NCBI GenBank assembly: GCA_963835575.1
Contig: CAWIGG010000004.1
Span: 960,001 to 1,024,000, forward strand
Direction of reading: 5' to 3'
Length of the DNA: 64,000 bases
From: an uncultured Spirochaetota bacterium
GTDB lineage: Bacteria; Spirochaetota; Brevinematia; Brevinematales; JAOACQ01
Part shown: positions 376 to 38,952 of the stretch, in pieces
How positions within the stretch are numbered: the stretch's first letter is position 1
How the letters are laid out: each line of letters begins with the position of its first letter
Notes under the pieces: model-generated
Databases searched by the model: none
Seen by the model: only the letters and a program-made list of their open reading frames with translations
What the model was told of the DNA's origin: nothing
Position numbers and translations under genes: made by a program

Positions 376-2124
376 TTAGAATCTTATTCCTAAAAGCCCG
401 CCGTCATCTTTTGCGTCAGTTAAAGTCTTCCTCACATACTTATCAAGGTCAAACCCTTTGCTAAAGTCTTTTACAGGCATTGTGTCCGAATTCATGGTGC
501 AGATGTACTGGAATTTTAGCCTTTCTGATTCTTTTGCTGCCAATTCAAGAGCCAAAGCTTTTTGCCGCTCATCTACATCCGCAAAGATTATGCTGTCATG
601 AATAAGAAGCCTGGGAGAAATATTTTTTTCTGCCCAGATTTGCGCAAGCACGAGATCGTAACAGAATATCTTCATGTTACCGATACCATAACTTCCAGAG
701 CGCTCAATAATGACTCCAAACTTAAAACCCGTCTTTGAAACATCTATTGAGAGCGTACCCGGCGCTTCATAGAGTGCTTTCGAGTTAGCATTGAAAAGAA
801 GGATTGCTTTTTCCTTCTGAACTTTCCTTTCTGACAAATCTATACTTGCATGCTGTTGAAGAAGCTCCATCTCGACCGTTACAGCACTTTTCCCTTGTTC
901 AAATATTTTCAGATTTTTTATCTTTATATCCAAGTCCTTCAATTCAGAAACGGTTTTCTGATGATTATTCTGCAATTGAGTATATTCCTCAAGGGCACCA
1001 TGCTCTTGCAGAACAAGCAGCAGTTCCACTTTCTTTGAGGACAGCTCCTGCTTTAGCTGCTCTCTCCCTGCTATTTTACTTTTTATATTCTCTATCTCTA
1101 TCTTCAAAAAATCTTTTCTGTTAGCAACAACCTGTTTGTGAAAAGATAAAACATCGTCCAACCTCTTAGTCACAAGGTCTGGCAAAGTTAATCCCGCTTC
1201 TTCATAAACCTTAGTTACAGATTCTGGTCTTGCGTCAACTTCTTCCTTTAGGCTTGCTTCATAGTACTCAAGAAGCCTCTTGTCACTTATGTTCTCATTA
1301 ATCAGCTCATGGATCCTTCTGGTCAAATCGTTTGCATCCGTCTCAATCTTGTTATATTGCGGATGCACCCTGAAGCTTTTTAATTGTTCGCCTTCCTGCT
1401 TCGCCTGCTCTTCACTCCTAACCTTTAATGCCTCGAGCTCTCCAAGAGTTCCCATGAAGCTTGCAAGAATCCCTGTCTGCGCTTCCTGCTTAATCTGGGC
1501 AAGAATTTTCACTCTGTCCTTCAGGACTTGCCATTTCGAAGAAAACTCCCAGCCGAGACCAAGAAGGTATGCGTTGTTCACTTGAATATCCCACTCGTGC
1601 TGATTCTTGTATTGCTGGAATGGGTTAAGAAATGCCCCGCTTTGGCCGTTGCGCCTGACCAAGTAAGAAATCATGCTCCTAAAAGTGGGGACGTACTTCA
1701 TATCGCCAAAGGAAGGTTTAAGGTCGAACATCAGAACTCCAAGTACTCTGATCCAGTCGTTTCTCGACAATACTTTTGCGCCTGTTTCTTTATCTGTGTC
1801 TGGAGTAATTGGCCATCCAGAGCAATCTCCCTCAATAACTATTTTGTTTTGTTCAGAAATGTTTCTGGTCACAGAGTGTCTTTTTCCTGCTATGTCAAGG
1901 TCTATAGTAAATGACCAACCCTCCATCTCTTTTTTGCTGAGAGTATCACCTTTATTTGCTCCGAAGCAGAAATGGATAATTTCAATAAGAGTTGACTTCC
2001 CAAGTCCATTTCTGGAATCTTTCTTTGTGGACTCTTTCGTTCTTTCAGCAAGAATTACGTTAAATCCTGACTTAAACTCAATATTCTTGAACGATGACTT
2101 GTTGCTCTTTATTGAATAAATCAT
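376..2124 (-). CDS. lmuB: Lamassu LmuB / ABC three-component SMC-like ATPase (DUF2326-type)
   Basis: Walker A NGLGKST, long central coiled coil, C-terminal GSYGIGNMKIFCYD and Walker B LLIHDS; last gene of a three-gene overlapping operon. Confidence 0.85.
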   Translation of the reverse strand: MIYSIKSNKSSFKNIEFKSGFNVILAERTKESTKKDSRNGLGKSTLIEIIHFCFGANKGDTLSKKEMEGWSFTIDLDIAGKRHSVTRNISEQNKIVIEGDCSGWPITPDTDKETGAKVLSRNDWIRVLGVLMFDLKPSFGDMKYVPTFRSMISYLVRRNGQSGAFLNPFQQYKNQHEWDIQVNNAYLLGLGWEFSSKWQVLKDRVKILAQIKQEAQTGILASFMGTLGELEALKVRSEEQAKQEGEQLKSFRVHPQYNKIETDANDLTRRIHELINENISDKRLLEYYEASLKEEVDARPESVTKVYEEAGLTLPDLVTKRLDDVLSFHKQVVANRKDFLKIEIENIKSKIAGREQLKQELSSKKVELLLVLQEHGALEEYTQLQNNHQKTVSELKDLDIKIKNLKIFEQGKSAVTVEMELLQQHASIDLSERKVQKEKAILLFNANSKALYEAPGTLSIDVSKTGFKFGVIIERSGSYGIGNMKIFCYDLVLAQIWAEKNISPRLLIHDSIIFADVDERQKALALELAAKESERLKFQYICTMNSDTMPVKDFSKGFDLDKYVRKTLTDAKDDGGLLGIRF

Positions 2125-2348
2125 TTCGATGCCCTCCGCAGAAGGCCGTCTTGGAACTCGACTGCACCCATAATGAATAATAAATCGAGACCGAGTGTAA
2201 ATCTTTCAAAAGTCTTTACCTCTGGAAGTATATTGACGGTATTCCATAATGCAGTGACTGTATGGTTGTTATCTATGTATTTAAGAAGCACTGCGCCTAC
2301 GCTAATCAAAGAATTCGTTAATCTTATGTGCTTTGTTGGAAGGATCAT
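2121..2348 (-). CDS. lmuC: ABC three-component middle component (LmuC-like)
   Basis: 75 aa, MILPTKHI...FERFTLGLDLLFIMGAV; 4-bp overlaps with both neighbours. Confidence 0.8.
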   Translation of the reverse strand: MILPTKHIRLTNSLISVGAVLLKYIDNNHTVTALWNTVNILPEVKTFERFTLGLDLLFIMGAVEFQDGLLRRASK

Positions 2349-3094
2349 TTTTCGAACACCTCACACTTCTCAAAAAGATAAACTAGGACAGCAAGTCCAG
2401 CTGCCTTCTGTTTGAAATTGTTACTCCCACCAGACGAAAAATCAAGCAATGCCATAAACAAATTATCACCCTCAAGCTCTTCAGCGTTTTTAAGCTGCTC
2501 ATATTTCATAACGAAGCCTTGCTTTAAGCGCTCTCCAAAATCAATGTCAGGAGATTTTCCAATATAGTCCCCGACCTGATTTGCCTGAATTGATCCCATA
2601 TTTATTAATGCCTCAATGCTTCCTGATAAGTTATTCTTTTTAATTTTATCCTTTGGAGGTATAACAGTAAAATCATCGCTAGGCATAGATTGACCAGAAA
2701 TCAAATATTTTGTGACAACATTCAACTCAGCAAAGGTAACATTCACAACCTCGGCCTTTGTACATTCCCTAATCCAATCCTCATGTTCCTTTTTAATCTG
2801 AAAAAGCATTACATCAGTATATGTATTTGGTTGATTGTCTATCTTTGTATGGCAATTAGGACATAACAATAAGAGGTTTGGGTAGCTATTTCTTTCAGTA
2901 TCACTCATGTTTGTATCGTAGCGGGCTGAGCCAGGGTTTTCTCCTTTTATGTGTGCAATCACTCCTATGATTGCGGCATTGTCAAAGTCATTACCAGGTT
3001 CAATAAGCTCCCGTCTACAATCAGGCAAAGCGCACCTGTTGCCACTTTTTATGCAAACAATCTTCTGCTGTTTCGGGGGAATATTCCCACTCAT
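2345..3094 (-). CDS. lmuA: Lamassu LmuA effector: HNH endonuclease plus ABC-3C C-terminal domain
   Basis: SGNRCALPDC...AHIKGENPGSARYD...NLLLLCPNCHTKID (HNH/zinc motifs); C-terminus VLVYLFEKCEVFEK typical of ABC-3C CTDs. Confidence 0.82.
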   Translation of the reverse strand: MSGNIPPKQQKIVCIKSGNRCALPDCRRELIEPGNDFDNAAIIGVIAHIKGENPGSARYDTNMSDTERNSYPNLLLLCPNCHTKIDNQPNTYTDVMLFQIKKEHEDWIRECTKAEVVNVTFAELNVVTKYLISGQSMPSDDFTVIPPKDKIKKNNLSGSIEALINMGSIQANQVGDYIGKSPDIDFGERLKQGFVMKYEQLKNAEELEGDNLFMALLDFSSGGSNNFKQKAAGLAVLVYLFEKCEVFEK

Positions 3095-3330: not shown

Positions 3331-3360
3331 TTTTCTTCGTGCCTTCCCGCCTTGTTAATT
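3331..3360. repeat. Single right-arm repeat module (B type) at the edge of the Lamassu island
   Basis: TTCTTCGTGCCTTCCCGCCTTGTTAAT resembles TTCGTGTCTTCCCTTCCTGTTAAAT (about 13957) and TTCTTCCCGCCTGTTAATCC (about 37515). Confidence 0.55.
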
Positions 3361-9763: not shown

Positions 9764-10117
9764 ATGAAAGCTCTTGATTTTATCGTTATTATCCTTGTTT
9801 TATTTGCCGGCTTAAGCGGGATAATTTACAGTCTGAATGGAAGCGGCGGTGATTTTATCCGGATCACATGCCCTGACGGGGAATACCGCTATTCTTTATC
9901 AAAGGACAGGGTTGTCCGTTTAAAGGGAGCGGCGGGCTTTCTCACGGCCGAGATAAAAAACGGCAGGGTCCGTGTCAGCGAATCGTCCTGCCCCTTTCAA
10001 GTATGCCGGGGCCGCGGCTGGATTTATCTGTCCGGCGACAGCATTGTCTGCGTTCCCAACCGCATCACGATAAAAATAACCGGGACCAGGCAGGATTTCG
10101 ATGCAATTACTGAATGA
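9764..10117 (+). CDS. NusG domain II-containing (Lin0431-like) exported protein
   Basis: N-terminal TM; GRVRVSESSCPFQVC...GWI...IVCVPNRITIKI. Confidence 0.85.
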   Translation: MKALDFIVIILVLFAGLSGIIYSLNGSGGDFIRITCPDGEYRYSLSKDRVVRLKGAAGFLTAEIKNGRVRVSESSCPFQVCRGRGWIYLSGDSIVCVPNRITIKITGTRQDFDAITE

Positions 10118-10646
10118 CATCCGGAATTATTATAAGCTGACGCTTGAAAGAAAAATCTATCTCATCGCTTTTCTTGCCGCCCTGTCGGGCATCTTTTCCG
10201 TCCTGGACGCGATGATCCCGAAGCCCATCCCTTTTGTCAAAATAGGCATTGCCAATATTGTCAGCCTCATCCTTGTCCGGGAAGACAAACTTCTTCTGGC
10301 CCTGAATGTGGCGGTTTTAAGGACAATTGTTTCATCCCTCTTTATCGGGACTTTCCTTTCCTATACGTTTCTCCTCAGCTTTACCGGGGCGGTTGTGTCC
10401 CTTCTATTTATGTGGCTGTTTTTCAAAATTTTCGGGAAAAATCTGTCCGAAGTCGGGCTTTCGGTGATCGGGGCCTTTTTTAACACAGCGGCGCAGGGGC
10501 TTCTGGTCTTTCTCTTCTGGAGCTACGACAGAGGAACGCTATTTCTTGTCTCCATTCTGATCCTGGCAAGCCTTGTGAACGGCATTATCATCGGCTTTCT
10601 GGCGAAAATGTTTTATAAAGAGGCGGAGAAAATTCCCACTGAATAA
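10101..10646 (+). CDS. Gx transporter family protein (annotated heptaprenyl-diphosphate synthase component I-like)
   Basis: PIPFVKIGIANIV, SFTGAVVS, GLSVIGAFFN; multi-TM; commonly paired with NusG-II genes. Confidence 0.85.
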   Translation: MQLLNDIRNYYKLTLERKIYLIAFLAALSGIFSVLDAMIPKPIPFVKIGIANIVSLILVREDKLLLALNVAVLRTIVSSLFIGTFLSYTFLLSFTGAVVSLLFMWLFFKIFGKNLSEVGLSVIGAFFNTAAQGLLVFLFWSYDRGTLFLVSILILASLVNGIIIGFLAKMFYKEAEKIPTE

Positions 10647-10649
10647 CTT

Positions 10650-10992
10650 CACCACCACAAAGAGCACTAAGAAACACCAACTGGAGTTATACCTTTCTTT
10701 ATTGTTTAATTTAATATTTTGATCAGTATTTCTTTGTTCTAATATCCGATTGTTCACGCGGATTAACGCGGATTAGGTGGATTTCATAGGATTTAGTTTT
10801 ACTCAAAGCCGCCTTTACACTTTTGCCCGGCGCATCATCTTATGCAGATGATTAGTAATTGGGATTGATTGTGGGCTGTGCCCGGTAGACAAGGAATTTT
10901 AATATAGAATTCTTGAATAATTTATAAAAGCTGTTTTGCAGAACCCAATTGAGCAGGATGGGCAGGATTTGGAAGGATAAACAGGATTATGG
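10650..10992 (+). repeat. Left composite repeat arm of locus L1
   Basis: Modules CACCACAAAGAGCACTAAGAAACACCAA, TTCACGCGGATTAACGCGGATT, GGGCTGTGCCCGG and ACCCAATTGAGCAGGATGGGCAGGAT; about 10760-10945 is an inverted copy of about 37185-37372. Confidence 0.8.
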
Positions 10993-11005
10993 ATATTTAA
11001 ATTGT

Positions 11006-11035
11006 TTGCATACGATGGGGTGAAAGGAGTATAAT
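11006..11035 (+). promoter_or_regulatory. Putative sigma70 promoter upstream of the cassette
   Basis: TTGCAT-18 bp-TATAAT. Confidence 0.45.
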
Positions 11036-11119
11036 GTTTAGGAAGTAAATTGATATTAGTAGCGTATATTAATAGTTCTACGCCATGCCACACGAATTAT
11101 AATAAAAAGGAGTAAATTT

Positions 11120-11911
11120 ATGAATAAGCAAATATTGCCAATTCTTATAGCTTATTATTCATTTTTATTTGGTTCATCAATAACAATATTTAAAGATTAT
11201 ATTCAAAAGCATGTTTTTACATTTTTTATTGTTGTTTCAATACTTTGTATAATACCTTTGTTCGTTTTTATTCTTATTAAATTATCTGCTTCATTCGCAA
11301 AATTATTTAGAATTTTATTATTTTACTCTCTTAAAATAAATACATTTTCAATAATAGGTATCTCTGTATTATTATTCTTTTGTGTTTTAATGACAATTAA
11401 TTATTTGAATAAATATTTAAATATTGATCTTATTAATTTTAATATCATTATTCTTAATATCATTTTTATTTTATATTTTATATTTTTTATAAATAAAAAA
11501 ATAAGATTTTTTGAACCTAAAGGACTTCTAATTCAAGAATTTGGTCATATTGAAATATATCTATATCATAAAGGAAAATTACGACACATACCAGATCCAC
11601 CAACTTTACAACTGCTTGGTTATTCAATAAAAGATGTAAATGTAATACCTCATCAAGAATATATTAAATATAAACTTGATTCACCTTTAGAAAGTATTTA
11701 CTCAGTAAAATTTGTTACAATAAATGGAAGACCTGAAATATACATGATAATAAATGGAGAAAAAAGACATATACCAGATGTTGTTACTTTTGATTGGATT
11801 AAAAATGTACGTTCTGAAAAAAGAATTGACAATACATTAGAACCGATTTTAGAAGATAGATTAAATCAATGGAAAACTGGCAAACCATTAAAAAGTTTAA
11901 TCCAGGATTAA
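11120..11911 (+). CDS. AT-rich hypothetical membrane protein (4 TM, then two RHIPD repeats)
   Basis: AGGAG RBS; hydrophobic N-half; EIYLYHKGKLRHIPD and EIYMIINGEKRHIPD. Confidence 0.75.
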   Translation: MNKQILPILIAYYSFLFGSSITIFKDYIQKHVFTFFIVVSILCIIPLFVFILIKLSASFAKLFRILLFYSLKINTFSIIGISVLLFFCVLMTINYLNKYLNIDLINFNIIILNIIFILYFIFFINKKIRFFEPKGLLIQEFGHIEIYLYHKGKLRHIPDPPTLQLLGYSIKDVNVIPHQEYIKYKLDSPLESIYSVKFVTINGRPEIYMIINGEKRHIPDVVTFDWIKNVRSEKRIDNTLEPILEDRLNQWKTGKPLKSLIQD

Positions 11912-11939
11912 TATAGGTGTCGCACGGCGTAGAACACGG

Positions 11940-13617
11940 GAGTCTGTCGCAAAAGCTGCCGAATGAATCAGCAATGTCCTATTGAAAATGGCTTTTTTAA
12001 AATTTTATAACTTTCTCGGGTAATATGATCATTCAGTCCGGATTTTAACTGTATCTCCTGCCCCTAATCCTACAATTTAATCCCCAAAGCCGCCATTTTC
12101 CTGAAATTGTACGCAATGCAGACCATATGCCAGATAGTGTTTACACTATCCAGACCGCGGTAGTAAAACCTTCCGAAGTTGAAGTATTCTTTTATCGTCC
12201 CGAAAATGTGCTCGATCAGGCAGGCACGCTCATTGTAAGTTCTTTTACCTTCAATACTCCTAAGCTTTTCCTTCATCTTGCGCCTTAATTCAACCGTTTC
12301 AAAATATTCATACTTTACATTAAACCGTTTGTTTTTTAATGCTTCCAGCTTACCGGCGCAATTTGAAAGCAGCTTGCACTTCCTGCACAACTCGCGCTTT
12401 GGATAGAAACGGTAATTCTTGACTCCCCGATCATTATAAGCTCTTTCCGCGCACATAATCTGGCCTCCGGGGCATTTGATTTTCCTGATATTACCGTCAA
12501 TTATTAATTCACAGTCTTTGGATGTTATTTTATCCTTGTTCTTTCTCTTTTTCGGACTTCCGTCTTCTTCTTTTCCTTCGGGGATATAAAGGTCGATCTT
12601 TTTATCTTCACCGTATTGGATATTATCCGATGTGAAATATCCGGCGTCCAGCGTGAACTTTGTGTCTTCCTTCGGCTCTTCCTGGTGATCCATTACTTCC
12701 TCTATCATCGGGACAGCAAGGTTACGGTCGCTTGCGCAGTCTGATACCATCGCGCCCGTGAGAAATTCATTTTTACTGTCAACGGCGGCCTGGCAATTAT
12801 ACCCGGGGCCGATTGATCCGTTATTCATTTTCATTAACCTGGCGTCTTTGTCTGTCAGGTTTACGCTTTCCGTTTCGTCTAAATTCCTGTCCTCAACTGT
12901 TTTCAGAAATTTATCTATCCCGGATTTCTGCTGTTCAAACTTCTTGAGTTTATTTGCCATCCTTTTGGAATATTTATCATCGGTATTGCTGTTCACCGTT
13001 TCCTGGAGGATTTTTAAGATCTTTTCCTCGATTTTATCCTTTTTATCCCGGAATTCCTTCGCATTCCCCGTGAAATTCCTGTTGGCCGATGCCTTTATCT
13101 TTGTACCGTCTATAGCTTCCAGTTCATAACTGATAAAACCCGATTTCGCCAGAATGTATACCATTTTCCCGAAAATACTAACGATCTCATCCAGGTATTT
13201 ATTGATAAATCTACAGATATTACTGTGGTCAACGGTGGTATTTCCCGCGAGATAAATCGTGTTCAGGTCGTTTTTCATCCTTTTTTCTATTTTACGTGAA
13301 GTGTAAATACCGGACGCGAAGCTGTAAAAAAGGACTTTCAGCATCATTGTAGGGTTGACCGCTTTTGCTCCCGTTGTTTGATTCCGCAGTTTAACGGCAA
13401 ATTCAGCGGGGGAAATATAGCTCTCAACATAATCGTCAATGACTTTGACCAGCGGATTGTTTTCCCTGATTTTGTCGGGATCGACGGTCAGCCAGTAGAT
13501 TTGATCGCGAATATATTTTTTGAATTTCCCCAGCATTTGACACCTCTTAAATATGGTTTTATTATATTCTATCGTAAGTTATGAAAAATGTACATGAAGA
13601 GCTTTTGCGACAGACTC
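11940..13617 (-). mobile_element. IS1182-family insertion sequence
   Basis: 18-bp perfect terminal IR GAGTCTGTCGCAAAAGCT / AGCTTTTGCGACAGACTC; 4-bp target duplication ACGG (11936-39, 13618-21). Confidence 0.92.
12070..13536 (-). CDS. IS1182-family DDE transposase
   Basis: PTMMLKVLFYSFASGIYTSRKIE, AIDGTKIKASA, TDKDARLM, GYNCQ, LDAGY, IEHIFGTIK. Confidence 0.93.
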   Translation of the reverse strand: MLGKFKKYIRDQIYWLTVDPDKIRENNPLVKVIDDYVESYISPAEFAVKLRNQTTGAKAVNPTMMLKVLFYSFASGIYTSRKIEKRMKNDLNTIYLAGNTTVDHSNICRFINKYLDEIVSIFGKMVYILAKSGFISYELEAIDGTKIKASANRNFTGNAKEFRDKKDKIEEKILKILQETVNSNTDDKYSKRMANKLKKFEQQKSGIDKFLKTVEDRNLDETESVNLTDKDARLMKMNNGSIGPGYNCQAAVDSKNEFLTGAMVSDCASDRNLAVPMIEEVMDHQEEPKEDTKFTLDAGYFTSDNIQYGEDKKIDLYIPEGKEEDGSPKKRKNKDKITSKDCELIIDGNIRKIKCPGGQIMCAERAYNDRGVKNYRFYPKRELCRKCKLLSNCAGKLEALKNKRFNVKYEYFETVELRRKMKEKLRSIEGKRTYNERACLIEHIFGTIKEYFNFGRFYYRGLDSVNTIWHMVCIAYNFRKMAALGIKL

Positions 13618-13749
13618 ACGGCGTTTGCGCTGCGGTGCGTGCTCGTAAACTGCGCGCGCTCCTCGTTGTTATGATAAAAGCAACGAAAAAGAAACTTGAT
13701 GGTTCGCCCTTAAGGTTTAAATAAATAGTTTTGAACAATGATGATATTC

Positions 13750-14058
13750 ACCTGACATCGAGCCGGTCCTGAAATCACTAAAATCCGCTTACAATTGGGT
13801 TTAAAAAAACAGCTTTAATTTAATTTTCAAAAATGATGTCTTTTGTATTTCAGGCGTAGCCCACATCCTTTTCAATTTCCGTGCCCTGGAGTTTACCCTG
13901 AGCGAGCGCAACGAGTCGAAGGGTGCAATTCTGTGGCTATACCCCTTTTAGTTCCCCTTCGTGTCTTCCCTTCCTGTTAAATTTCCCCAGTTGGTGCTTC
14001 TTTGTGCTCCCTTCGATACGCCCTATCGGGTTACTCAGGAACCGGCGCGGGGTGAAAA
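13750..14058 (-). repeat. Right composite repeat arm of locus L1 (inverted relative to the left arm)
   Basis: AATTGGGTTT..AAACAGCTTT, ATTTCAGGCGTAGCCC, TTCCGTG..GTGCAATTCTGTGGCTA, CTTCCCTTCCTGTTAA, GTTGGTGCTTCTTTGTG..GGTGAAA. Confidence 0.78.
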
Positions 14059-14071
14059 TCTGCCTATTAAT

Positions 14072-15837
14072 GGCCCTACTGCAAAAACAATCCTACCGAT
14101 TCATGTACAAAAGTTGCATAACTCGTTATAATATATGCACATGAATCAGAGAGAGGTCAAAATGTTCAAGCTGAATCAGAGACATATAGAACAGGATTTA
14201 TATCCGGTAAGATATGAAATGAACCAGGAAATGAGAGAAAGTTTAAATGAAAGCTGGGCCGGGCTTTTTTACCAGAAAGTTTTCTCAAAAATAAATGAGC
14301 GGAAGTTTGCTCCACTATATGACCCAAAACTTGGTAGGAGTAATTTCCCGGTCAACATATTAGCCGGGCTGGAAATCATGAAAGAGCTATTCTCTCTGAC
14401 CGATGAACAGTTGTTTGAGCGGTATCGATATGATTTATCGTTTCGATACGCGCTGGGATTGGAAGACATCAACGCGCAGCAGATGTCGATCAGGACGTTA
14501 TACTATTTTCGTGCCGCTGTGGCGGAGAATCAGGACGGGCTTTTTGACGTTATATTTGATGAGTTTCGGGATCTTTTAATTGGAGAGGTCGGGATCAAAA
14601 CCGGACTGCAGAGGACAGATTCTGTAATGATTGGGGCCAATATCAAGCGGCTGAATCGGGTTATGCTGTTTCATAAAGTGTTGTCCAATATGGCGGAAGA
14701 TGTTTCCAATGCTGGATTTTCCTTAAGTGAAAGATGTAAGGATTTTCTAAAACAAAATGAGGACGGATTCAGTTATCGACTGAAAAAGGAGAATTACGAA
14801 TCGAAAACGGTGGAAATTGGCGAGGAAATATTCGGGCTGATTACAGAGAACGTGTTTCACAATAAAGTCAGGAAACAAAAGAGTTTCCGGCAGGCAATGA
14901 GACTTTTGCGGGAACAATGCCGGATAGAAAAAGAAGGCAAGGTGACGCTGAAGCTGCCGCGGGAAATCAAAGCCTCATCGATGCAGTCGCCGGTGGACGA
15001 AGACGCGACCTACCGGGAGAAGCGGGGAAAACAGTATGTCGGGTATAAGGTGAACGCGGTTGAAACCTGTGACCCTCAAAATCCGATGCAGGTGATTACC
15101 AGCATAGAAACCGCATCAAATAATGCTGACGATGGGGATTTATTCCGCAGGCAACTATCTAATTTAAAAAAGGAAACGAATATTGAAACAGCGATAAGCG
15201 ATGGCGGTTATAATTCTGAAGACCTTCGGAATGAGAGCGGCGAAGACGTTCAACTGGTAATGAGCGCGATACGCGGCGTCGATCTGGAAGGGATAAAAAA
15301 CAAAGCGAAACTTTCTGAGTATACAGACCCAAAAACCGGCAAATATGGGATGTGTCCGGCGGGAGAAATCCCGAATAGCATTATTGAAAATGAAGATGGT
15401 TCCGTGGTATTGAATTTTGATGTAAAAAAATGTGCCGCCTGCGATAAGAAAGAAAATTGTCTGGCCTGTGTCGGCAAGAAGCAAAGTCGGCTGGTAATAG
15501 ACGCCAAAAGGGAATGGATGGATGAATTTTTGGAATTGATATGTATGGATGCAGGAAAATTTCTGATGGGACTACGCCCTGCCGTAGAAGGATTGATGAG
15601 TTTATTGAAACCAAAGTATTTGAGCGGCAGGATTTTGTTCCGTGGTCTGGTAAAAGTCAAAACCCGCATGCTTTTAAGGGGAATCGGGATTAATTTCAAG
15701 AGATATCGGGGCTATTTGGCTGATAAATCGAAGGCTGCCGCCGACATGGCCTTTGATTTCTTAATCTTTTTCCTTGTGCGGTTGAAAATTTGCCGGAATA
15801 TCCCCTATGCTTGTGTTTGAATTTTTTCAGCAGGGCC
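14072..15837 (+). mobile_element. IS5/IS1182-like insertion sequence
   Basis: IRs GGCCCTACTGCAAAAA / TTTTTCAGCAGGGCC flanked by ATTAAT on both sides (14066-71, 15838-43). Confidence 0.85.
14162..15820 (+). CDS. DDE transposase (IS5/IS1182-like)
   Basis: LGRSNFPVNIL, QRTDSVMIGANI, SPVDEDATYREK, GYKVN, SDGGY, RPAVEGLMS; ATG 14162 preceded by GAGG. Confidence 0.88.
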   Translation: MFKLNQRHIEQDLYPVRYEMNQEMRESLNESWAGLFYQKVFSKINERKFAPLYDPKLGRSNFPVNILAGLEIMKELFSLTDEQLFERYRYDLSFRYALGLEDINAQQMSIRTLYYFRAAVAENQDGLFDVIFDEFRDLLIGEVGIKTGLQRTDSVMIGANIKRLNRVMLFHKVLSNMAEDVSNAGFSLSERCKDFLKQNEDGFSYRLKKENYESKTVEIGEEIFGLITENVFHNKVRKQKSFRQAMRLLREQCRIEKEGKVTLKLPREIKASSMQSPVDEDATYREKRGKQYVGYKVNAVETCDPQNPMQVITSIETASNNADDGDLFRRQLSNLKKETNIETAISDGGYNSEDLRNESGEDVQLVMSAIRGVDLEGIKNKAKLSEYTDPKTGKYGMCPAGEIPNSIIENEDGSVVLNFDVKKCAACDKKENCLACVGKKQSRLVIDAKREWMDEFLELICMDAGKFLMGLRPAVEGLMSLLKPKYLSGRILFRGLVKVKTRMLLRGIGINFKRYRGYLADKSKAAADMAFDFLIFFLVRLKICRNIPYACV

Positions 15838-15875
15838 ATTAATAAGCTCTTATAAAAAATTTGTTCAATTTTAGT

Positions 15876-28421: not shown

Positions 28422-28482
28422 AATTAGCTTTTAGCTTCTGGCTGTCAGCTGGCTAACCGCTAACAGCCAATGGCTAACTGCT
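28422..28482. repeat. G-module heptamer repeats
   Basis: TTAGCTTTTAGCTTCTGGCTGTCAGCT..GCTAACCGCTAACAGCCAATGGCTAACTGCTA. Confidence 0.7.
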
Positions 28483-29200
28483 ATTTCTTTGCATTCGTTA
28501 CTGAAGATATATTCGTACCTTCCGACTTTACTGAATTCGTTTCCGGCCAATTATAAAGGAAATTTATTTTACTGATGCACAGGTCGTTATATTTACTGCC
28601 TTTATATACTGATTTGATTTTAAAAACTATTGTATATTTACTAATGTCTTCAACATATTTATCAAACCTATTTTCCTTATGTTCTTTATCTAAATCAGTC
28701 TTGAAATAAAATGAATTATTCAAGTTATAATCATCCTTCAATTGTATATTGTTTGATTCAATAAGAAACAAACCCAATATAACTTCGCCTATGTCTTGTC
28801 TAACATCATAAATGATTTTATACAAATATAAGTCAATATCCTTCACTCGATTATTTAAATCATATAATTGTTTATTCCTATGAAATCCATTAATTATTTT
28901 TATACCTTTAACCCATTTTTCATTAGAAAAAGGATCAGGACGGTCAAACATAATCATTATTTCTTCACCAACACCGCCATTCTTCCTTGTAGCCCAGGGT
29001 AAATCCGTTTGATCATTTATAAGGTTTTTATCATAAAAAATAATATCGTTCTCCACTAATTCTGAAGTTGAAGTAATATAAATTTTACTGCCCGATTTAA
29101 GAAATAAATCTTTAACCCGTTTTTCATTAAAATATATTTTATCTTTACCAAATGCCCATGCATTCATTAGAATAAACAGGATAATTATAATCCGCTTCAT
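28481..29200 (-). CDS. Secreted protein with NADase-type/F5-8-like glycan-binding domain
   Basis: Signal peptide; W..GVGEEI..IINGF..NNRVK..IKSVYKGSKYNDLCISKINF; very AT-rich. Confidence 0.7.
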   Translation of the reverse strand: MKRIIIILFILMNAWAFGKDKIYFNEKRVKDLFLKSGSKIYITSTSELVENDIIFYDKNLINDQTDLPWATRKNGGVGEEIMIMFDRPDPFSNEKWVKGIKIINGFHRNKQLYDLNNRVKDIDLYLYKIIYDVRQDIGEVILGLFLIESNNIQLKDDYNLNNSFYFKTDLDKEHKENRFDKYVEDISKYTIVFKIKSVYKGSKYNDLCISKINFLYNWPETNSVKSEGTNISSVTNAKK

Positions 29201-29263: not shown

Positions 29264-29430
29264 TTCCCATACGCAAATCAGGGACGCTGAAAGAAGCGTC
29301 CCTGTATTTATATTAAAAACTATAAACTTCGAATTCTTCCCGCATTCCTGTTTATGAGCTATTAAACTAAATAATTAATCCGCGCAAATCCGCCCCATCC
29401 GCGTTATCCGCGTGAAAAATCGGATATTAC
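29264..29430 (-). repeat. Repeat arm of locus L2 (REP hairpin plus B and F modules)
   Basis: CAGGGACGCT-GAAAGA-AGCGTCCCTG; TTCTTCCCGCATTCCTGTTT; ATCCGCGTTATCCGCGTGAAAAATCGGATATT (reverse complement of 10741-10775). Confidence 0.78.
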
Positions 29431-32821: not shown

Positions 32822-33082
32822 TTTCACCGCCAAGACACCAAGAACACAAAAAGGCACAAACGGGGATTAATAATTCTTTATTGTATCAATTAAAGCCATC
32901 TATTAGCATTTCTTTTTTTTGGAATCAAATTGAGTAATCCGCTAAGTCACGCGAATGAACGCTAATATAATGTAACTATTAGAAACCTTCATTTTCATTC
33001 TTGATTCTTTGCGTGTATTCGCGTGCATTCGCGGATTACCCTAGTTGGCGGTCCTTGGTGTTCTTTGTGTCTTGGTAGTTAA
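32822..33082. repeat. Empty composite inverted-repeat locus L3
   Basis: A (32822-32860) and C (32935-32966) followed by mirror C' (33008-33039) and A' (33044-33082); no ORF between. Confidence 0.8.
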
Positions 33083-33887: not shown

Positions 33888-35294
33888 TCAAAAATAAATG
33901 TCCCGTTCGCCATTACCGATTTTTTCAAGGACCTCCGCCATTCTCTTTTTTAAGGCGGGTTTATCCGCGCCGTTTATAAGTGAATCGATCAGCTTGAGCC
34001 CTTTTTCCCTGACATCAGGGGAAGCGTAATCGCTGAGATATTCCTTGAATGTAAATACAGCGTTCGGAAAACAGAATTCCTTGATCAGCCCGGGTTTCGC
34101 CAGGTCCATAAAGTCATGACCTACCCTTCCCTTCCGGTAGCAGCCCGTGCAGAAGGAAGGAATATATTTATCGTCGATCAAAGCGGAAATGACTTCCTCC
34201 AGCGACCGGTGGTCGCCCAGCGAGAACTGCCCGCCCTTATCGTTATTAATATGGGCCGCGTAAGCGCCGGGATTTGTCCGGGAACCTGCCGAGATCTGGC
34301 TGATGCCGTAATGGAAGAGCTCCGTGCGGAGCTTTTCGCTTTCGCGCGTCGAGAGAATGATCCCGGTGTAAGGCAGCGCGATGCGGATGACGGCGACGAT
34401 CTTTTTAAAGTCCTCGTCGCTCACAGGATAGGGAATATGGCGCGAGAGCGGCGCGCCGTCCGCCGGTTCGATCCTGGGGACGCTCACGGTATGGGGGCCG
34501 CAGCCGAACGCTTTTTCCAGATGAGCGGCATGCTCCATCAGCGCCAGCACCTCAAAGCGGTAATCCGCCAGGCCGAAAAGTGCGCCGATGCCGACATCGT
34601 CGATGCCGCCCGCCATTGCGCGGTCCATGACGGTCAGGCGCCATTCATAATCCGCCTTTCTGCCGGAGGGATGGTATTTTTTATAAAGCTCTTCGTCGTA
34701 TGTTTCCTGGAAGCAGACGTATGTGCCGATTTTTTCCGCCTTGAGCTTTTTAAAACCTTCTATATCCTGAGGGGCGATCTCGACATTGACCCTCCGGATG
34801 TAAGCCTCCCCGGCCCGCGCGGCGTACGCCGTCCGGATCGCCGAAAGAAAATAATCCGGCGGCAGTTCCTCAGTCTCGCCGCAGAGCATAAGAAGCCTTT
34901 TATGCCCCTGCTCGAGGAGCGTGATCACTTCTTTTTCAACCTGCGGCAGTGTGAGATTTGTCCTGTGTATTGATTTGTTGTCTTTGCGGAACGCGCAGTA
35001 AAGGCAGTTGTTCGAACAGATATTGCCGATGTAAAGAGGCGCGAACAGAACCAGGCGGTTGCCGTAAATCTCCTGTTTGACCTTGTTGGCGGTGATGAAT
35101 ATTTTTTTCAGCTGGTCTTTATCTTTTATCTGGAGAAGGGCGGAAACGTCTTTTTGGTTCAAGCCCTTGAGTATGAGCGCTTTTTCCAGGATGGCGTTTA
35201 CTTCGCTTTCAGTAGGTTCAAGTCTATCTATCAGTCCGTAGAGCCTATCCCTGTCAATGAAATTCTTCGGGCCCGAAGCCTTCGTTTGGGTCAT
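33888..35294 (-). CDS. hydG: [FeFe]-hydrogenase maturase HydG
   Basis: FAPLYIGNICSNNCLYCAF, GPHTVSVPRIEPA, PSFCTGCYR. Confidence 0.95.
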   Translation of the reverse strand: MTQTKASGPKNFIDRDRLYGLIDRLEPTESEVNAILEKALILKGLNQKDVSALLQIKDKDQLKKIFITANKVKQEIYGNRLVLFAPLYIGNICSNNCLYCAFRKDNKSIHRTNLTLPQVEKEVITLLEQGHKRLLMLCGETEELPPDYFLSAIRTAYAARAGEAYIRRVNVEIAPQDIEGFKKLKAEKIGTYVCFQETYDEELYKKYHPSGRKADYEWRLTVMDRAMAGGIDDVGIGALFGLADYRFEVLALMEHAAHLEKAFGCGPHTVSVPRIEPADGAPLSRHIPYPVSDEDFKKIVAVIRIALPYTGIILSTRESEKLRTELFHYGISQISAGSRTNPGAYAAHINNDKGGQFSLGDHRSLEEVISALIDDKYIPSFCTGCYRKGRVGHDFMDLAKPGLIKEFCFPNAVFTFKEYLSDYASPDVREKGLKLIDSLINGADKPALKKRMAEVLEKIGNGERDIYF

Positions 35295-35550
35295 TATCTT
35301 CCTCCCTGTATCTGGTCAAAACCGATTTGACCTGGATGCCCTCCAGCTTTCCGATCTTTCCTGTCAGGGCGCCGATCTGGTCCGTATCGCCTTCCACAAT
35401 GAGGGAGATGATGTGAATGCCTTTATCGCGGAGAGGCAGGCCCATCCTGCCGATAATGATCTCTCCATGCTCGGACAAAAGCGAGTTGAGTTTCGGGACG
35501 TTTTTTGTTTCTTTGAGAAGAATTGCGACAACGCCGATTCTCTTTTCCAT
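35254..35550 (-). CDS. TM1266-family iron-only hydrogenase system regulator (ACT-like)
   Basis: MEKRIGVVAILL..LNSLLSE..IIIGRMGLP..IGALTGKIGKLEGIQVKS; GGAGGAG RBS. Confidence 0.9.
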   Translation of the reverse strand: MEKRIGVVAILLKETKNVPKLNSLLSEHGEIIIGRMGLPLRDKGIHIISLIVEGDTDQIGALTGKIGKLEGIQVKSVLTRYREEDNDPNEGFGPEEFH

Positions 35551-35657: not shown

Positions 35658-35669
35658 AATAATAGGTAT

Positions 35670-36162
35670 AACCACGAAGGGCACGAAGAACACGAAGAAG
35701 CACTAACGGGGGATTAACAGGCGGGAAGGGGGAACGGACGGGGTAATCCGCGAAGCCACGCGAATGGACGCTAAGGGGATTAACAGGAAGTCACGAAGAC
35801 GGGAAGGGAAACGGGGGGTCAGCCACGGAATTTCACGGAAGGGCACGGAAAGGACTGAAATCGGGGGGCTATGCCCGGCGGAGGAAAGATTTTGATTGAG
35901 AAGACCTTTTTGTTTTATTAAAAATTATTGTACGACTCAATTTCACACAGATTACACGGATTAAGGCGGATTTATAGGATTTAGTTTTACTTGACGATGC
36001 TTGTAAAGTTTTAATCGGTGTCTGGTATGAGATAGGACGCTTGTGAACGGGGATTTTATAAGGGGGCTACGCCTGAAATATGAAAGATTAAATTTTATTA
36101 TTCTTTAATGTAATATCCGATTGTTCACACAGATGATGCGGAATGGATGGATTTATGCGGAA
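35670..36162 (+). repeat. Left composite repeat arm of locus L4
   Basis: Module order A-B-C-B-D-E-F-E-F (CACGAAG.., TTAACAGG..GGAAG, CCGCGAA..CACGCGAAT, GCCACGGAA.., GGGCTAYGCC, TTCACACAGAT..). Confidence 0.85.
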
Positions 36163-36163
36163 A

Positions 36164-37069
36164 TTAATGTTCGCGAAATGCAGGTAATATTTTTGGACCA
36201 CTTTCAAACCAGTGAATACTATAAAGATCAATATTCTTTTCTTTACACAATGGCCATAATTTACTCTTTTCTTTATTTGTTACTTTATCACCAATAACAA
36301 TGGCTTGAATTGTCGATGTAATATCAAAATAAATATCAATATTTTGTTCATTATAAATCATAATTCTAAATTCATTTTCATCCTGATAATCTTTGAATTT
36401 ATAAAACAGGGATTCAAATAATATTTTCTTGTTTGATTGGTAATAGCGTTCAGCATCTTGTTTAGGATTGATTCCATTATAGTGGGGAATATGTCTCAAT
36501 GACTCAAAAGCACCAGGTAATAGATTTTTATAAATAACTTTTTCTGCATACAAGTTTTCATCAGAATAAAAATTTTTAACCGTTTCTATTAATTTTTGTT
36601 TAATAAAAACTAAACATACACCTTCATGCCCATTTGCATATTGTCCCCACATTCTTGATCTTCCATATCCTTTTAAGAATGGGTCATCATGAATTGAACC
36701 ACTTTTATCTATACAAAAACAGCAAACTCGATGATTTTTCTTTTCCGAATTGATTATTTTCTCATATTCTTTGCGAAATTGGGACTCACTATCGGATCTT
36801 CCAAGAATTGAATCGGGTTCCTTGCCAAATATTTGTTCTTGAGTTAAAGAAAAAGTAGGGAAATATTCCTTATATTCCAACGGATCGTTTGTCATATTCA
36901 TTCGATTAAACAAAAGCTTGTTCGTTTTTAGTACTTTGAAAGCTTTTTTTGAATCTGTATAATGGTAAAGTAATTCATCTGTATATTGTGAATAAAGAAG
37001 TTCATCTATTTTTTTATTCATAATTGTGAAAGCTTCTATCATTTTCTTTATTTTATTTCTCCAAAACAT
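36164..37069 (-). CDS. DUF2971-like protein (AT-rich, often defence-associated)
   Basis: LYHYT, TNDPLE, MWGQYANGHEGVCLVF, KFKDYQDENEFRI. Confidence 0.82.
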   Translation of the reverse strand: MFWRNKIKKMIEAFTIMNKKIDELLYSQYTDELLYHYTDSKKAFKVLKTNKLLFNRMNMTNDPLEYKEYFPTFSLTQEQIFGKEPDSILGRSDSESQFRKEYEKIINSEKKNHRVCCFCIDKSGSIHDDPFLKGYGRSRMWGQYANGHEGVCLVFIKQKLIETVKNFYSDENLYAEKVIYKNLLPGAFESLRHIPHYNGINPKQDAERYYQSNKKILFESLFYKFKDYQDENEFRIMIYNEQNIDIYFDITSTIQAIVIGDKVTNKEKSKLWPLCKEKNIDLYSIHWFESGPKILPAFREH

Positions 37070-37131
37070 AGATTGAAAAATTAATCTATTTTATTCATTT
37101 TAAATAGTTCATTAATAATTATCAATTAACT

Positions 37132-37613
37132 TCCACAAAAAATCCATGTTAATCCGTCTGTTTTGTGAAATTAGCGTTAAATTGTGGTCTGAAAAACAAC
37201 TTTTATAAATTATTCAAGAATTCAATATTAAAATTCTTTGTCTGCCGGGCGTAGCCCCCAATCAATCTCAATTACCAACCATCTGCGTAAGATTATGCGC
37301 CGGGTAAAAGAGTAAAGGCGGCTTTGAACAAAACTAAATCCTTTAAAATTCGATTAATCCGCGTAATCCGTGATAAATTGGGGTCTGATAAATTGTTTTA
37401 ATATCATTTAAAAGAATTCTTTGTTAAAATCCTTTGTATTTCAGGCGTAGCCCGCCTAATTCTTCTTCCGTGATCTTCCGTGCAATTCTGTGGCTAACCT
37501 CGTCGTTTCTTCCTTTCTTCCCGCCTGTTAATCCTTTTCATTCGCGTCCATTCGCGTGGATTCGCGGATGACCCCCGTTTGTGTTTCTTCGTGTCCTTGG
37601 TACCCTTGGTAAT
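37132..37613 (-). repeat. Right composite repeat arm of locus L4 (mirror of the left arm)
   Basis: Reverse-complement modules in the order F'-E'-F'-E'-D'-B'-C'-A'. Confidence 0.85.
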
Positions 37614-37688
37614 GAAAAAAAAGTATTGACATTCATCGCATTACTTATTATTTATTATAATAGCATTTCACAATCAAGGAGGTTTGAA

Positions 37689-38651
37689 ATGAAAGCTATT
37701 TTAATTCATGAATTCGGCGGGCCGGAAGTCCTCAGGCTTGAGGAAGTTCCTACACCGGTTCCTTCAGCCGGGCAGGTGCTGGTCCGTATCTATGCCGCCG
37801 GCGTCAACCCGGCCGACACATACACGCGTACTGGGAATTATGCGGTCAAGCCCCAGCTTCCCTTTACGCCGGGCACTGACGGCGCCGGTACAATTGAAAG
37901 TGTGGGCAGCGGCATAACAAAAGTAAAGCCCGGCGACAGGGTCTATCTGGCGCGCTCCATTACCGGCGCTTATGCCGAATACGCGCTGGCGCTGGGATCC
38001 CAGGCGCACCGTCTGCCGGACAATGTTTCCTATTCTCAGGGTGCCGGCGTTTATGTCCCTTATGGCACGGCCTACCACGCCCTTCATCACCGGGCGAAAG
38101 CGCTCGCCGGTGAGACGGTCCTTGTCCATGGGGCAAGCGGCGGTGTCGGCATCGCGGCGGTGCAGATGGGCGCGGCTATGGGGCTCAAAGTCTTCGGTAC
38201 GGCAGGAAGCGCGAGAGGGCTTGAGCTGGTAAAAAAAGAAGGAGCTATAGCCGTTTTCGATCATAACAAACCGGGCTATCAGGATAAAATCCTTGAAAAA
38301 ACGGAAGGCAGAGGCGTCGACATCATCCTTGAAATGCTGGCCAATGTCAATCTGGGCGCCGACCTGAAGCTTCTCTCAAAAAACGGGCGCGTTGTGGTTA
38401 TCGGAAGCAGGGGAGATGTGACAATTACTCCCCGGGAGTTGATGGCCCGCCGAGCTTCAATCCATGGCATGATGCTTTGGAATATTACGGAACCTGAGAC
38501 TGAGGAAATCCATGCCGGGATTATCGAAGGGCTTGAAAAAGGGGCGCTCCGGCCCGTTGTCGGTAAGGAACTGCCTCTTGCGGAGGCTGCCCGCGCCCAT
38601 AAAGAAATTATGGAACCGGGCGCTTATGGTAAGATCGTCTTGCTGCCGTAA
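37689..38651 (+). CDS. qor: NADPH:quinone reductase (zeta-crystallin/Qor family)
   Basis: MKAILIHEFGGPEVL, AAGVNPAD, HGASGGVG, GKIVLLP; AGGAGG RBS before ATG 37689. Confidence 0.9.
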   Translation: MKAILIHEFGGPEVLRLEEVPTPVPSAGQVLVRIYAAGVNPADTYTRTGNYAVKPQLPFTPGTDGAGTIESVGSGITKVKPGDRVYLARSITGAYAEYALALGSQAHRLPDNVSYSQGAGVYVPYGTAYHALHHRAKALAGETVLVHGASGGVGIAAVQMGAAMGLKVFGTAGSARGLELVKKEGAIAVFDHNKPGYQDKILEKTEGRGVDIILEMLANVNLGADLKLLSKNGRVVVIGSRGDVTITPRELMARRASIHGMMLWNITEPETEEIHAGIIEGLEKGALRPVVGKELPLAEAARAHKEIMEPGAYGKIVLLP

Positions 38652-38700
38652 ATCAATAATGATTATTACAAAAGTAATATATGAATCGTGTACAAAATGC

Positions 38701-38843
38701 GTCATTGCGAGAAATTCGTTTTAAACCATGCCGATGATTATCGAGCGAAGCAATCTGTTTAATAATAAAGATATCTTCATATATAGACAGATTGCTTCGT
38801 ACTTTGCATAGTGGCGAAGTTTAATTCTTGCGACTAGCAATGA
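38701..38843. repeat. RPE/REP-like palindromic element
   Basis: GTCATTGC..CGAAGCAATCTGT..ACAGATTGCTTCG..GCAATGAC. Confidence 0.75.
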
Positions 38844-38952
38844 CAGCTTTTTTATTTAAAATAAGATGAGTAATTAATGTTTACATACTTTTAACTTATT
38901 TATTTGCAAAACGGGCTGTTATTCCTTATAATTTATTTCCCGTATAATAAAT

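Follow-up and report, generated by a model that had tools for sequence, protein, structure and literature searches.

Mirrored stacks of repeat ends, mostly of types that bracket GxxExxY nuclease genes, enclose an AT-rich DUF2971 gene in an uncultured spirochaete

The window, the whole stretch of DNA analysed here, comprises 64,000 nucleotides of an uncultured Spirochaetota bacterium of the order Brevinematales (positions 960,001 to 1,024,000 of contig CAWIGG010000004.1). It lies on C4, one of the seven contigs of the 4.39 Mb source genome, and coordinates refer to the window unless a contig is named. Within it, an AT-rich gene for a DUF2971 protein sits between two arms of about 490 bp each, and the whole locus lies between divergent genes (Table 1). 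Profile searches read the modules of the left arm (35669-36161) as A B C B D E F S E F and those of the right arm (about 37140-37616) as (f) e s f e d b c a, where lower-case letters are reverse complements; in the right arm, the innermost f has degenerated (75% over 28 nt). Reverse-complementing the right arm and aligning the left to it end to end gives 326 matching positions among 447 aligned bases (73%), AT-rich spacers included, and the register is broken only by an extra 31-nt copy of B in the left arm. This mirror alignment scores 331, compared with 57.5 for the arms in direct orientation; the highest score was 123.5 over 200 shuffles and 227.5 over 200 block permutations (0/200 reach 331). 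The mirror order of the arms exceeds chance, and the initial annotation was right to describe arms of about 480 bp in near mirror order around a DUF2971-like gene. It had also held that the arms are not one long inverted repeat. Because they are colinear over these bases, spacers included, they do form one degenerate long inverted repeat and not only a series of isolated modules.

The enclosed gene has a GC content of 0.28, compared with a median of 0.43 for genes of this genome. Its product matches the PADLOC model PDC-S31 (E 1.9e-14), and its identity to the closest database relatives does not exceed 35%. In a predicted structure (predicted local distance difference test, pLDDT, 74.9), the ADP-ribosyltransferase folds of DarT, CteC and Tpt1 rank first, weakly (E 1.2e-3, Z 6-7.6). 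Aristaios, a tested lactococcal anti-phage system, combines DUF2971 with an ADP-ribosyltransferase-like fold, and the focal protein shares its Pfam family, a similar length and the predicted fold, a likeness of family and fold and not of directly compared sequence (available text of PMC11381338). The domain is present and the fold support is weak but consistent; the focal protein is a candidate anti-phage protein or toxin. We found no relatives of the gene in a search of genome contigs. None of eight other DUF2971 loci carries arrays, so the focal gene is a passenger of the arms. The gene has no attC site at its 3' end, where the stop codon abuts the F array, and the window contains no integron integrase near the arms.

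The module types also surround a particular family of nuclease genes. Modules A, B, C, D and F are inward-facing arrays of seven-base words at a 9-bp pitch, and these are the types that bracket GxxExxY genes (PF13366, TIGR04256), a widespread family entered as of unknown function in the available text of PMC3424549. Nine such genes are present in the genome and, with flanks read by eye, all nine lie inside an inward pair of a single array type (C for three genes, A and F for two each, B and D for one each). The annotation's link between 9-mer repeats and GxxExxY genes is borne out in the source genome. In its full form, the element is a GxxExxY PD-(D/E)xK gene between two inward arrays of three to four seven-base words each; the same ends also bracket short AT-rich interiors, the ends of other families and unrelated AT-rich passenger genes. 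An array detector applied to 14 GxxExxY loci of relatives found arrays on both sides at eight, on one side at three and on neither at three. GxxExxY proteins that share a word type are more alike than those that do not (0.62 versus 0.45 identity, permutation p 0.0002, for 14 labelled proteins that include non-independent kin). One of these proteins was modelled confidently (pLDDT 92.8) and has a PD-(D/E)xK fold.

The remaining modules are of a different kind. The initial annotation treated E as a short GGGCTAYGCC module, but it is a unit of about 75 bp made of a short hairpin, usually a 58-62-nt spacer, and CCCCAAT, and an F or H word array nearly always comes after it. E forms the outer extension of F and H ends and occurs in two subtypes, P and T, while both E and S extend the F end. 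At the focal locus each E pair holds one P and one T copy, and the inner pair is reversed. No partner gene for E or S was found. A pattern search for E elsewhere returned 11 metagenome matches and one viral match, none of which scored with the module models, the best look-alike lying inside a coding gene. With a longer gap (62-82) the matches were chance ones, only the source genome's own loci and one A array scoring among the 199 loci screened, and a plasmid search gave a single 38-bp match, probably by chance.

Profile searches of the whole genome returned 587 modules in 306 clusters, which we compared with the gene set of a simple purpose-made gene caller. Although genes of at least 120 aa cover 80% of the genome, 575 of the 587 modules lie outside them (12 inside). 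Adjacent modules on opposite strands face inward in 106 cases and outward in 7, and 93 of the 106 inward pairs are of one type; clusters within 3 kb of each other share a type in 25/52 inward and 2/24 outward arrangements. Modules point at 34 low-GC genes and away from 2 (n = 240), and for other genes (n = 2903) the figures are 95 and 333. Same-type pairs bracket 14 of 378 low-GC genes (three GxxExxY and 11 others), a number that none of 300 random flips of the clusters reached (mean 4.4). The orientation bias and the association with accessory genes that the annotation had claimed are thus present genome-wide.

Module clusters are enriched between convergent genes (88/306, versus 239/1569 spacers). 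Their outer ends lie a median of 39 bp from a gene 3' end, and a host stop codon falls at the module edge in 26 of 208 cases. The 93 interiors between ends have a median length of 66 bp and a GC content of 0.28, and 27 of 83 resemble another interior. Both orientations occur at 143 loci, 11 of which share at least two module types. When we compared arm orders at these 11, the mirror order fitted better in nine and tied in two, so the pairing of arms that the annotation expected holds at most of these multi-layer loci, and no summed fit in 5000 shuffles reached the observed one. The focal locus is the deepest of them, with eight matched layers. No single nesting order holds throughout: A>C>B>D>E>F predominates, yet H-C, H-D, F-A and C-A nests occur, and in a sister genome, G002, F lies outside C. 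The idea that arms in general carry a promoter was also rejected, the strict motif occurring in 4/47 H ends and 2/108 F ends; at the focal locus, sigma-70-like sites are not above chance (8 found, 8.7 in shuffles). Separately, a near-consensus sigma-70 site pointing into the cargo is conserved just inside E(P)-H arms at C2:480348, C2:1631299, C4:970945 and C5:158936.

How the arms were assembled can be read in part from their end types. Simple C elements pair unlike ends (47 of 54 are end1 with end2, 7 are untyped and none is end1 with end1). Of the 23 C modules in stacked arms, 16 are end1, and modules there mostly abut within 1-35 bp with almost no interior. At C6:240773 both arms carry the same C end type, and the focal locus is probably the same. 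Had nested insertion acted alone, unlike ends and split interiors would be expected, so the copying of blocks, or recombination between stacks, must have played a part. Each focal arm also contains a block of 176-204 bp that is 85-87% identical to the arm of another locus, compared with 72% to its partner arm, which again implies that block copying or exchange helped to build the arms. The annotation's proposal of successive nested insertions therefore stands as far as nesting goes and fails as a full account.

Cargo at other module loci includes a type IIG restriction-modification enzyme, a type II methylase with a weak nuclease match, Panacea, PIN and IrrE/DUF4411 pairs, an SDH-type protease, two kinases, a Schlafen-domain protein and many ORFans; insertion sequence (IS) transposases are often found among the cargo regions. 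PADLOC matches were obtained for 9 of 32 cargo proteins scanned, some to generic kinase or methylase models and most of the others without a match, a figure that has no control set beside it. The cargo stop codon abuts the inner array at several loci besides the focal one (3, 7 and 21 bp). Of the 23 tyrosine recombinase domains, five were scanned, and their best matches were to XerC, XerD and XerA. Directly at the 3' ends of a XerD-like and a XerC-like gene (C2:1245275-1245943 and C4:114122-114730) lie a C-led arm and low-GC cargo, and the stop codon of the XerD-like gene falls inside the C end. IS copies themselves are not concentrated at the modules: 10/34 and 1/7 lie near one, compared with 24.6% of random segments, and the idea of an IS hotspot was rejected. 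The genome has undergone a very recent IS expansion, with 34 near-identical Mutator-family copies and about 11 copies of the IS at 14066-15846.

Sister-species genomes, among them G001, G002 and G004, are about 72% identical to the source genome in DNA and therefore too distant for comparison at the level of junctions. They do separate empty from filled sites, which the annotation had proposed to look for. At the second nested locus of the window (L2), the host flanks are adjacent in 3/3 informative sisters, and they are also adjacent at C3:96926 in three sisters, C4:466133 in 4/4, C4:891503 in two and C4:370482 in one. Across these five non-focal cargo loci, compared in four sisters, those lacking adjacency hold other genes or were uninformative. 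A search for empty sites within the source genome returned only other empty repeats.

G002 has F arrays of its own. In the 14 G002 regions read, an F pair surrounds an open reading frame (ORF) other than GxxExxY in six, a GxxExxY gene in one and an 11.5-kb island in one, and one further ORF case lies beyond these. One of the six non-GxxExxY cassettes is nested, with F outside C, and one keeps, as judged by eye, the inner promoter-like segment of GxxExxY cassettes. One small cargo family has F ends wherever it occurs in G002 (3/3 places), and the one copy in G001 and the one in G004 lack them (0/2), a distribution that fits capture of the family by F ends in G002 followed by copying to three loci; end and cargo were copied together, with 66.5% identity over 403 bp running from the array into the gene. 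Eight of 11 G002 cassettes could be mapped to a syntenic spot in the source genome. A different word family occupies four of these eight (C, D, A, or an A-C-B stack round a cupin gene, the last placed on the strength of flanks 50-56% identical), and another of the eight is a gap of 18 bp. This small sample suggests that the two genomes share insertion hotspots. The island (within L316, G002:C1:1371400-1384100) carries integrase and replication-protein genes between its two inward F ends. Of 10 genomes of other phyla, six exceed the control for a three-word pattern, and a lone match was obtained besides. In the planctomycete genome G305 (C3, C10, C17, C19), F-word arrays form outward pairs with a spacing of about 108 bp, opposite to the arrangement in the source genome.

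The best reading of the GxxExxY-cognate ends, with their polarity, nesting, passenger genes, lineage-specific insertion and joint copying of end and cargo, is that the arms are the stacked ends of several small non-autonomous element families, in which nesting and copying of arm blocks have piled up passenger-carrying ends of GxxExxY type. We lean, by a small measure, towards an active role for the nuclease, which would bind the arrays, cut at them and drive capture or movement. Under such a mechanism, GxxExxY nuclease would bind the word arrays cooperatively and cut at or near the ends, and the DNA between two ends might then be replaced, excised or reinserted with the help of host repair. 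A preference for gene 3' ends and for neighbouring existing ends would lead to stacking, and recombination or gene conversion between stacks would copy multi-module blocks, producing long mosaic mirror arms. The focal locus would then be an old cassette slot with slow turnover, at present occupied by a candidate anti-phage toxin. Bolder, and in our view doubtful, is the possibility of a new prokaryotic class of gene capture, in which a Cas4-like PD-(D/E)xK nuclease of about 125 aa, with word-specific paralogues, swaps the interior of iteron-like inverted ends for foreign DNA. If true, there would be integron-like cassette slots that need no integrase, att sites or target duplication, and nested, promoter-bearing platforms that stock defence and toxin-antitoxin genes.

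Several observations weigh against stacked GxxExxY-type ends and an active nuclease. The focal spot itself holds other genes and no arrays in G001, G002 and G004 (3/3 informative sisters), so it is variable anyway. Among 20 regions from five genomes of four other phyla, one held GxxExxY and none showed an array pair round a foreign gene. No excess of direct repeats, such as a target-site duplication would leave, was detected at any offset in the pairs compared (C, 41; D, 12; A, 7), and the best identity between distinct whole elements is 89% (n = 107), compared with 99.5-100% for IS copies. The process is old or slow, and decay in old elements could hide a duplication. Three of the nine GxxExxY genes look broken, and F-type nucleases fall in two places on the tree instead of one clade. 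E and S flank none of the nine genes, and a search of 40 relatives did not turn up E. The GxxExxY fold has its best match in SSO0001 (E 1.5e-3, Z 7.8, root-mean-square deviation 3.3 over 97 residues), a Cas4-family nuclease; the match is weak and restriction-like folds tie with it. The fold searches returned nothing passing E 0.001 or Z 8 and no transposase at the top.

Other explanations account for parts of the same evidence. The arrays could have spread in the manner of repetitive extragenic palindromes (REPs), with cargo swapped by homologous or site-specific recombination between resident and incoming arms and the nuclease only stimulating or limiting the exchange, a model proposed for the Ssn nuclease of Neisseria with its dRS3 arrays and, in the available text of PMC1797815, for the intergenic mosaic elements of that genus (NIMEs). 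The mosaic blocks shared between loci, the like C ends at C6:240773 and probably at the focal locus, the target duplication that was not found and the different word families at four of eight orthologous spots in G002 are all in keeping with it. We nevertheless consider it unlikely, since many sister sites are empty of any arm, which means that the ends arrive de novo. Moreover, in G002 single-layer ends of 30-50 bp carry cargo, a length that would be short for homologous recombination, and one cargo family occupies three unlinked loci.

A passive origin would give the arms no part in capture: empty selfish elements would accumulate in tolerant spacers, and foreign genes would land in their AT-rich interiors by way of IS, integron cassettes or illegitimate recombination. 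The attC-like repeat in the L2 cargo, found also elsewhere in the genome, the IS transposases in many cargo regions, the spots that vary without arrays and the lack of cargo in the 20 regions from other phyla would all be expected of such a sink. It is improbable given the polarity of the modules towards low-GC genes (34 to 2), the cargo stop codons 3-21 bp from the inner array at several loci, the joint copying of end and cargo in G002 and the absence of IS enrichment near modules. The arms might instead be kept for pairing in a transcript or a single-stranded cruciform, with the insert looped out or processed like an intervening sequence of ribosomal RNA. Their possible duplex is strong (-198 kcal/mol, compared with a mean of -61 for 30 shuffles), and clusters are, as noted, enriched between convergent genes. 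The focal locus lies between divergent genes, however, either arm resembles other loci more than its partner, the arms are unequal at many loci and Rfam gave no match; such a device at the RNA level seems very improbable.

Comparison with known systems begins with REPs arranged as inverted doublets (REPINs) and their REP-associated tyrosine transposases (RAYTs). REPIN-RAYT systems are old, slowly spreading intergenic inverted doublets that flank a presumed mobiliser gene and are enriched downstream of genes, traits that the present modules share. RAYT is an HUH Y1 transposase and REPs are palindromes, unlike the word arrays described here, and we know of no REPINs that carry passenger genes. 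The modules resemble REPINs as inward, extragenic, high-copy doublets, and they do not flank the RAYT-like gene whose flanks were read. The transposase of IS231A is of the DDE class. Mobile insertion cassettes (MICs) such as MIC231 of Bacillus cereus and mic-qnrD likewise have inverted ends round a passenger that replaces the mobility gene, with a promoter inside, and are mobilised in trans; their ends are IS terminal repeats moved by the IS transposase (IS231A), usually with target duplication (available text of PMC3913671). The present loci share with MICs and miniature inverted-repeat transposable elements the inverted ends round a passenger gene and the lack of a transposase inside. The ends here match those of GxxExxY cassettes and not an IS with a cognate transposase, in a comparison that did not take IS ends one by one. 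Unlike MICs, they are word arrays of 9-bp pitch tied to a 125-aa PD-(D/E)xK protein, duplication was not found, and up to five families nest.

The likeness to NIMEs (dRS3/NTS) and Ssn lies in GC-rich inverted motifs that flank AT-rich spacers, mosaic arrays next to variable genes and repeats that flank a small, stand-alone nuclease gene; as far as the available texts go, dRS3/NTS are self-contained hairpins, Ssn is GIY-YIG, and the arrays are tandem, not mirror-nested round one cargo (PMC1797815, PMC11893778). Here too, mosaic arrays with diverse AT-rich spacers lie beside variable genes, but no GIY-YIG Ssn gene is flanked by the repeats. Nesting in two layers, with one family of repeats lying within another, has been described for REP dimers in longer palindromes (Di Nocera 2013, PMC3733652); the available text of that paper mentions neither cargo genes nor a GxxExxY link and does not use the word "nested". 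The system described here works like a mobile insertion cassette, looks like NIMEs with Ssn and differs from each in its enzyme and ends.

We found no published description of these repeats under GxxExxY family names or as nested or cargo repeats, in a literature coverage that excludes most subscription journals and supplements. Our results suggest that bacteria acquire and package foreign genes by a means not described before. If the ends do capture genes, they would provide a route of horizontal gene gain that annotation tools for IS, integrons and REPs would be expected to miss. The genome supplies cognate DNA ends for GxxExxY, several pairs of word and protein, empty and filled alleles, and passenger genes, so that binding, cutting and mobility by GxxExxY are directly testable. 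The array brackets also mark candidate defence genes, as the PADLOC matches among cargo proteins indicate.

Table 1. Features of the focal locus and of other module loci in the window (positions within the 64,000-nt window)
Feature	Position	Strand	Remarks
TM1266-family hydrogenase regulator gene, left host flank	35254..35550	-	Conserved in sister species
Module A word array (CACGAAG type), outermost left end	35669..35708	+	Same type brackets GxxExxY at C2:137455 and C2:747052
B-C-B: two B copies round C array (end1 type)	35709..35815	+	Outer B is the extra 31-nt copy; module calls, alignment
Module D word array	35819..35850	+	D brackets GxxExxY at C2:377388
Outer E(P subtype)-F-S unit	35864..36050	+	D-E-F-S block 85% identical over 204 bp to arm at C4:883782
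Inner E(T subtype)-F unit	36062..36161	+	Ends 3 bp from cargo stop codon
Cargo gene, DUF2971, 301 aa (292 aa from second ATG)	36164..37069	-	Pfam PF11185, E 7.9e-11
Sigma-70-like site pointing into cargo, 17-nt spacer	37097..37125	-	10/12 consensus match; consensus match only
Inner degenerate f and e(P subtype)	37140..37259	-	Module calls
s-f-e(T subtype)	37268..37455	-	F-S-E block 87% identical over 176 bp to left arm 10649-10989
d-b-c-a, outer right stack	37466..37616	-	Module calls, alignment
Zinc-type dehydrogenase gene, right flank	37689..38651	+	Host-like GC; elsewhere in sister genomes
Second nested locus (L2): A-F-S-E-H / 263-aa low-GC gene, attC-like repeat split by IS1182-like element / e-d-b-a	10649..14020
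Single F end facing low-GC gene 28481-29200	29377..29417	-	No partner found
Empty two-layer nest A-C-c-a	32823..33082
A-C-B left arm directly after rpoC-like stop codon	51618..51720	+	Faces small low-GC genes including a Gp49/HTH pair

All of the further sites at which the initial annotation saw the same modules in the window were recovered, the one at 3331 as a degenerate B/A end at about 3333-3358. This lone end points at ABC-three-component-like defence genes (DUF2326, CTD10, HNH; 376-3094). The module stretches of L2 are 10649-10989, paired with 13809-13980, and it is the only module locus with an attC-like repeat. The repeat, identified by eye, forms a stem-loop after the 263-aa gene, at 11912-11945 and 13615-13676 on either side of the IS1182-like element. 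Comparable repeats are grouped at C2:2031215-2045270, at C6:422304-425782 and at the starts of several contigs, which suggests a cassette array elsewhere. Some host-like neighbours of nested loci, namely the dehydrogenase on the right flank of the focal locus and two genes at 9764-10646, including heptaprenyl synthase component I, are absent from the same spot in sisters. Together with the presence of the dehydrogenase elsewhere in those genomes, this hints at gene relocation at nested loci.

The annotation also named four-helix-bundle, RAYT and GIY-YIG genes as possible bearers of the same modules, and here the expectation failed. The RAYT-like gene carries other palindromes, and the intact GIY-YIG and four-helix-bundle genes carry repeats other than A-F. 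The genome has two Y1_Tnp matches, one with the other palindromes read and one inside a 1208-aa frame. A broken GIY-YIG remnant is cargo inside an F-A nest. CGTC-type repeats lie on both sides of the small intact GIY-YIG gene (C4:1026468), and a CGTC-type palindrome doublet of the same kind lies at 38700-38850, a separate Ssn-like repeat system. The four-helix-bundle (PF05635) gene at C6:2181-2498 is bracketed by long inward arrays of another 9-bp word, and an array similar to this type lies in G004 at the spot orthologous to the focal locus (L015:1455-1550).

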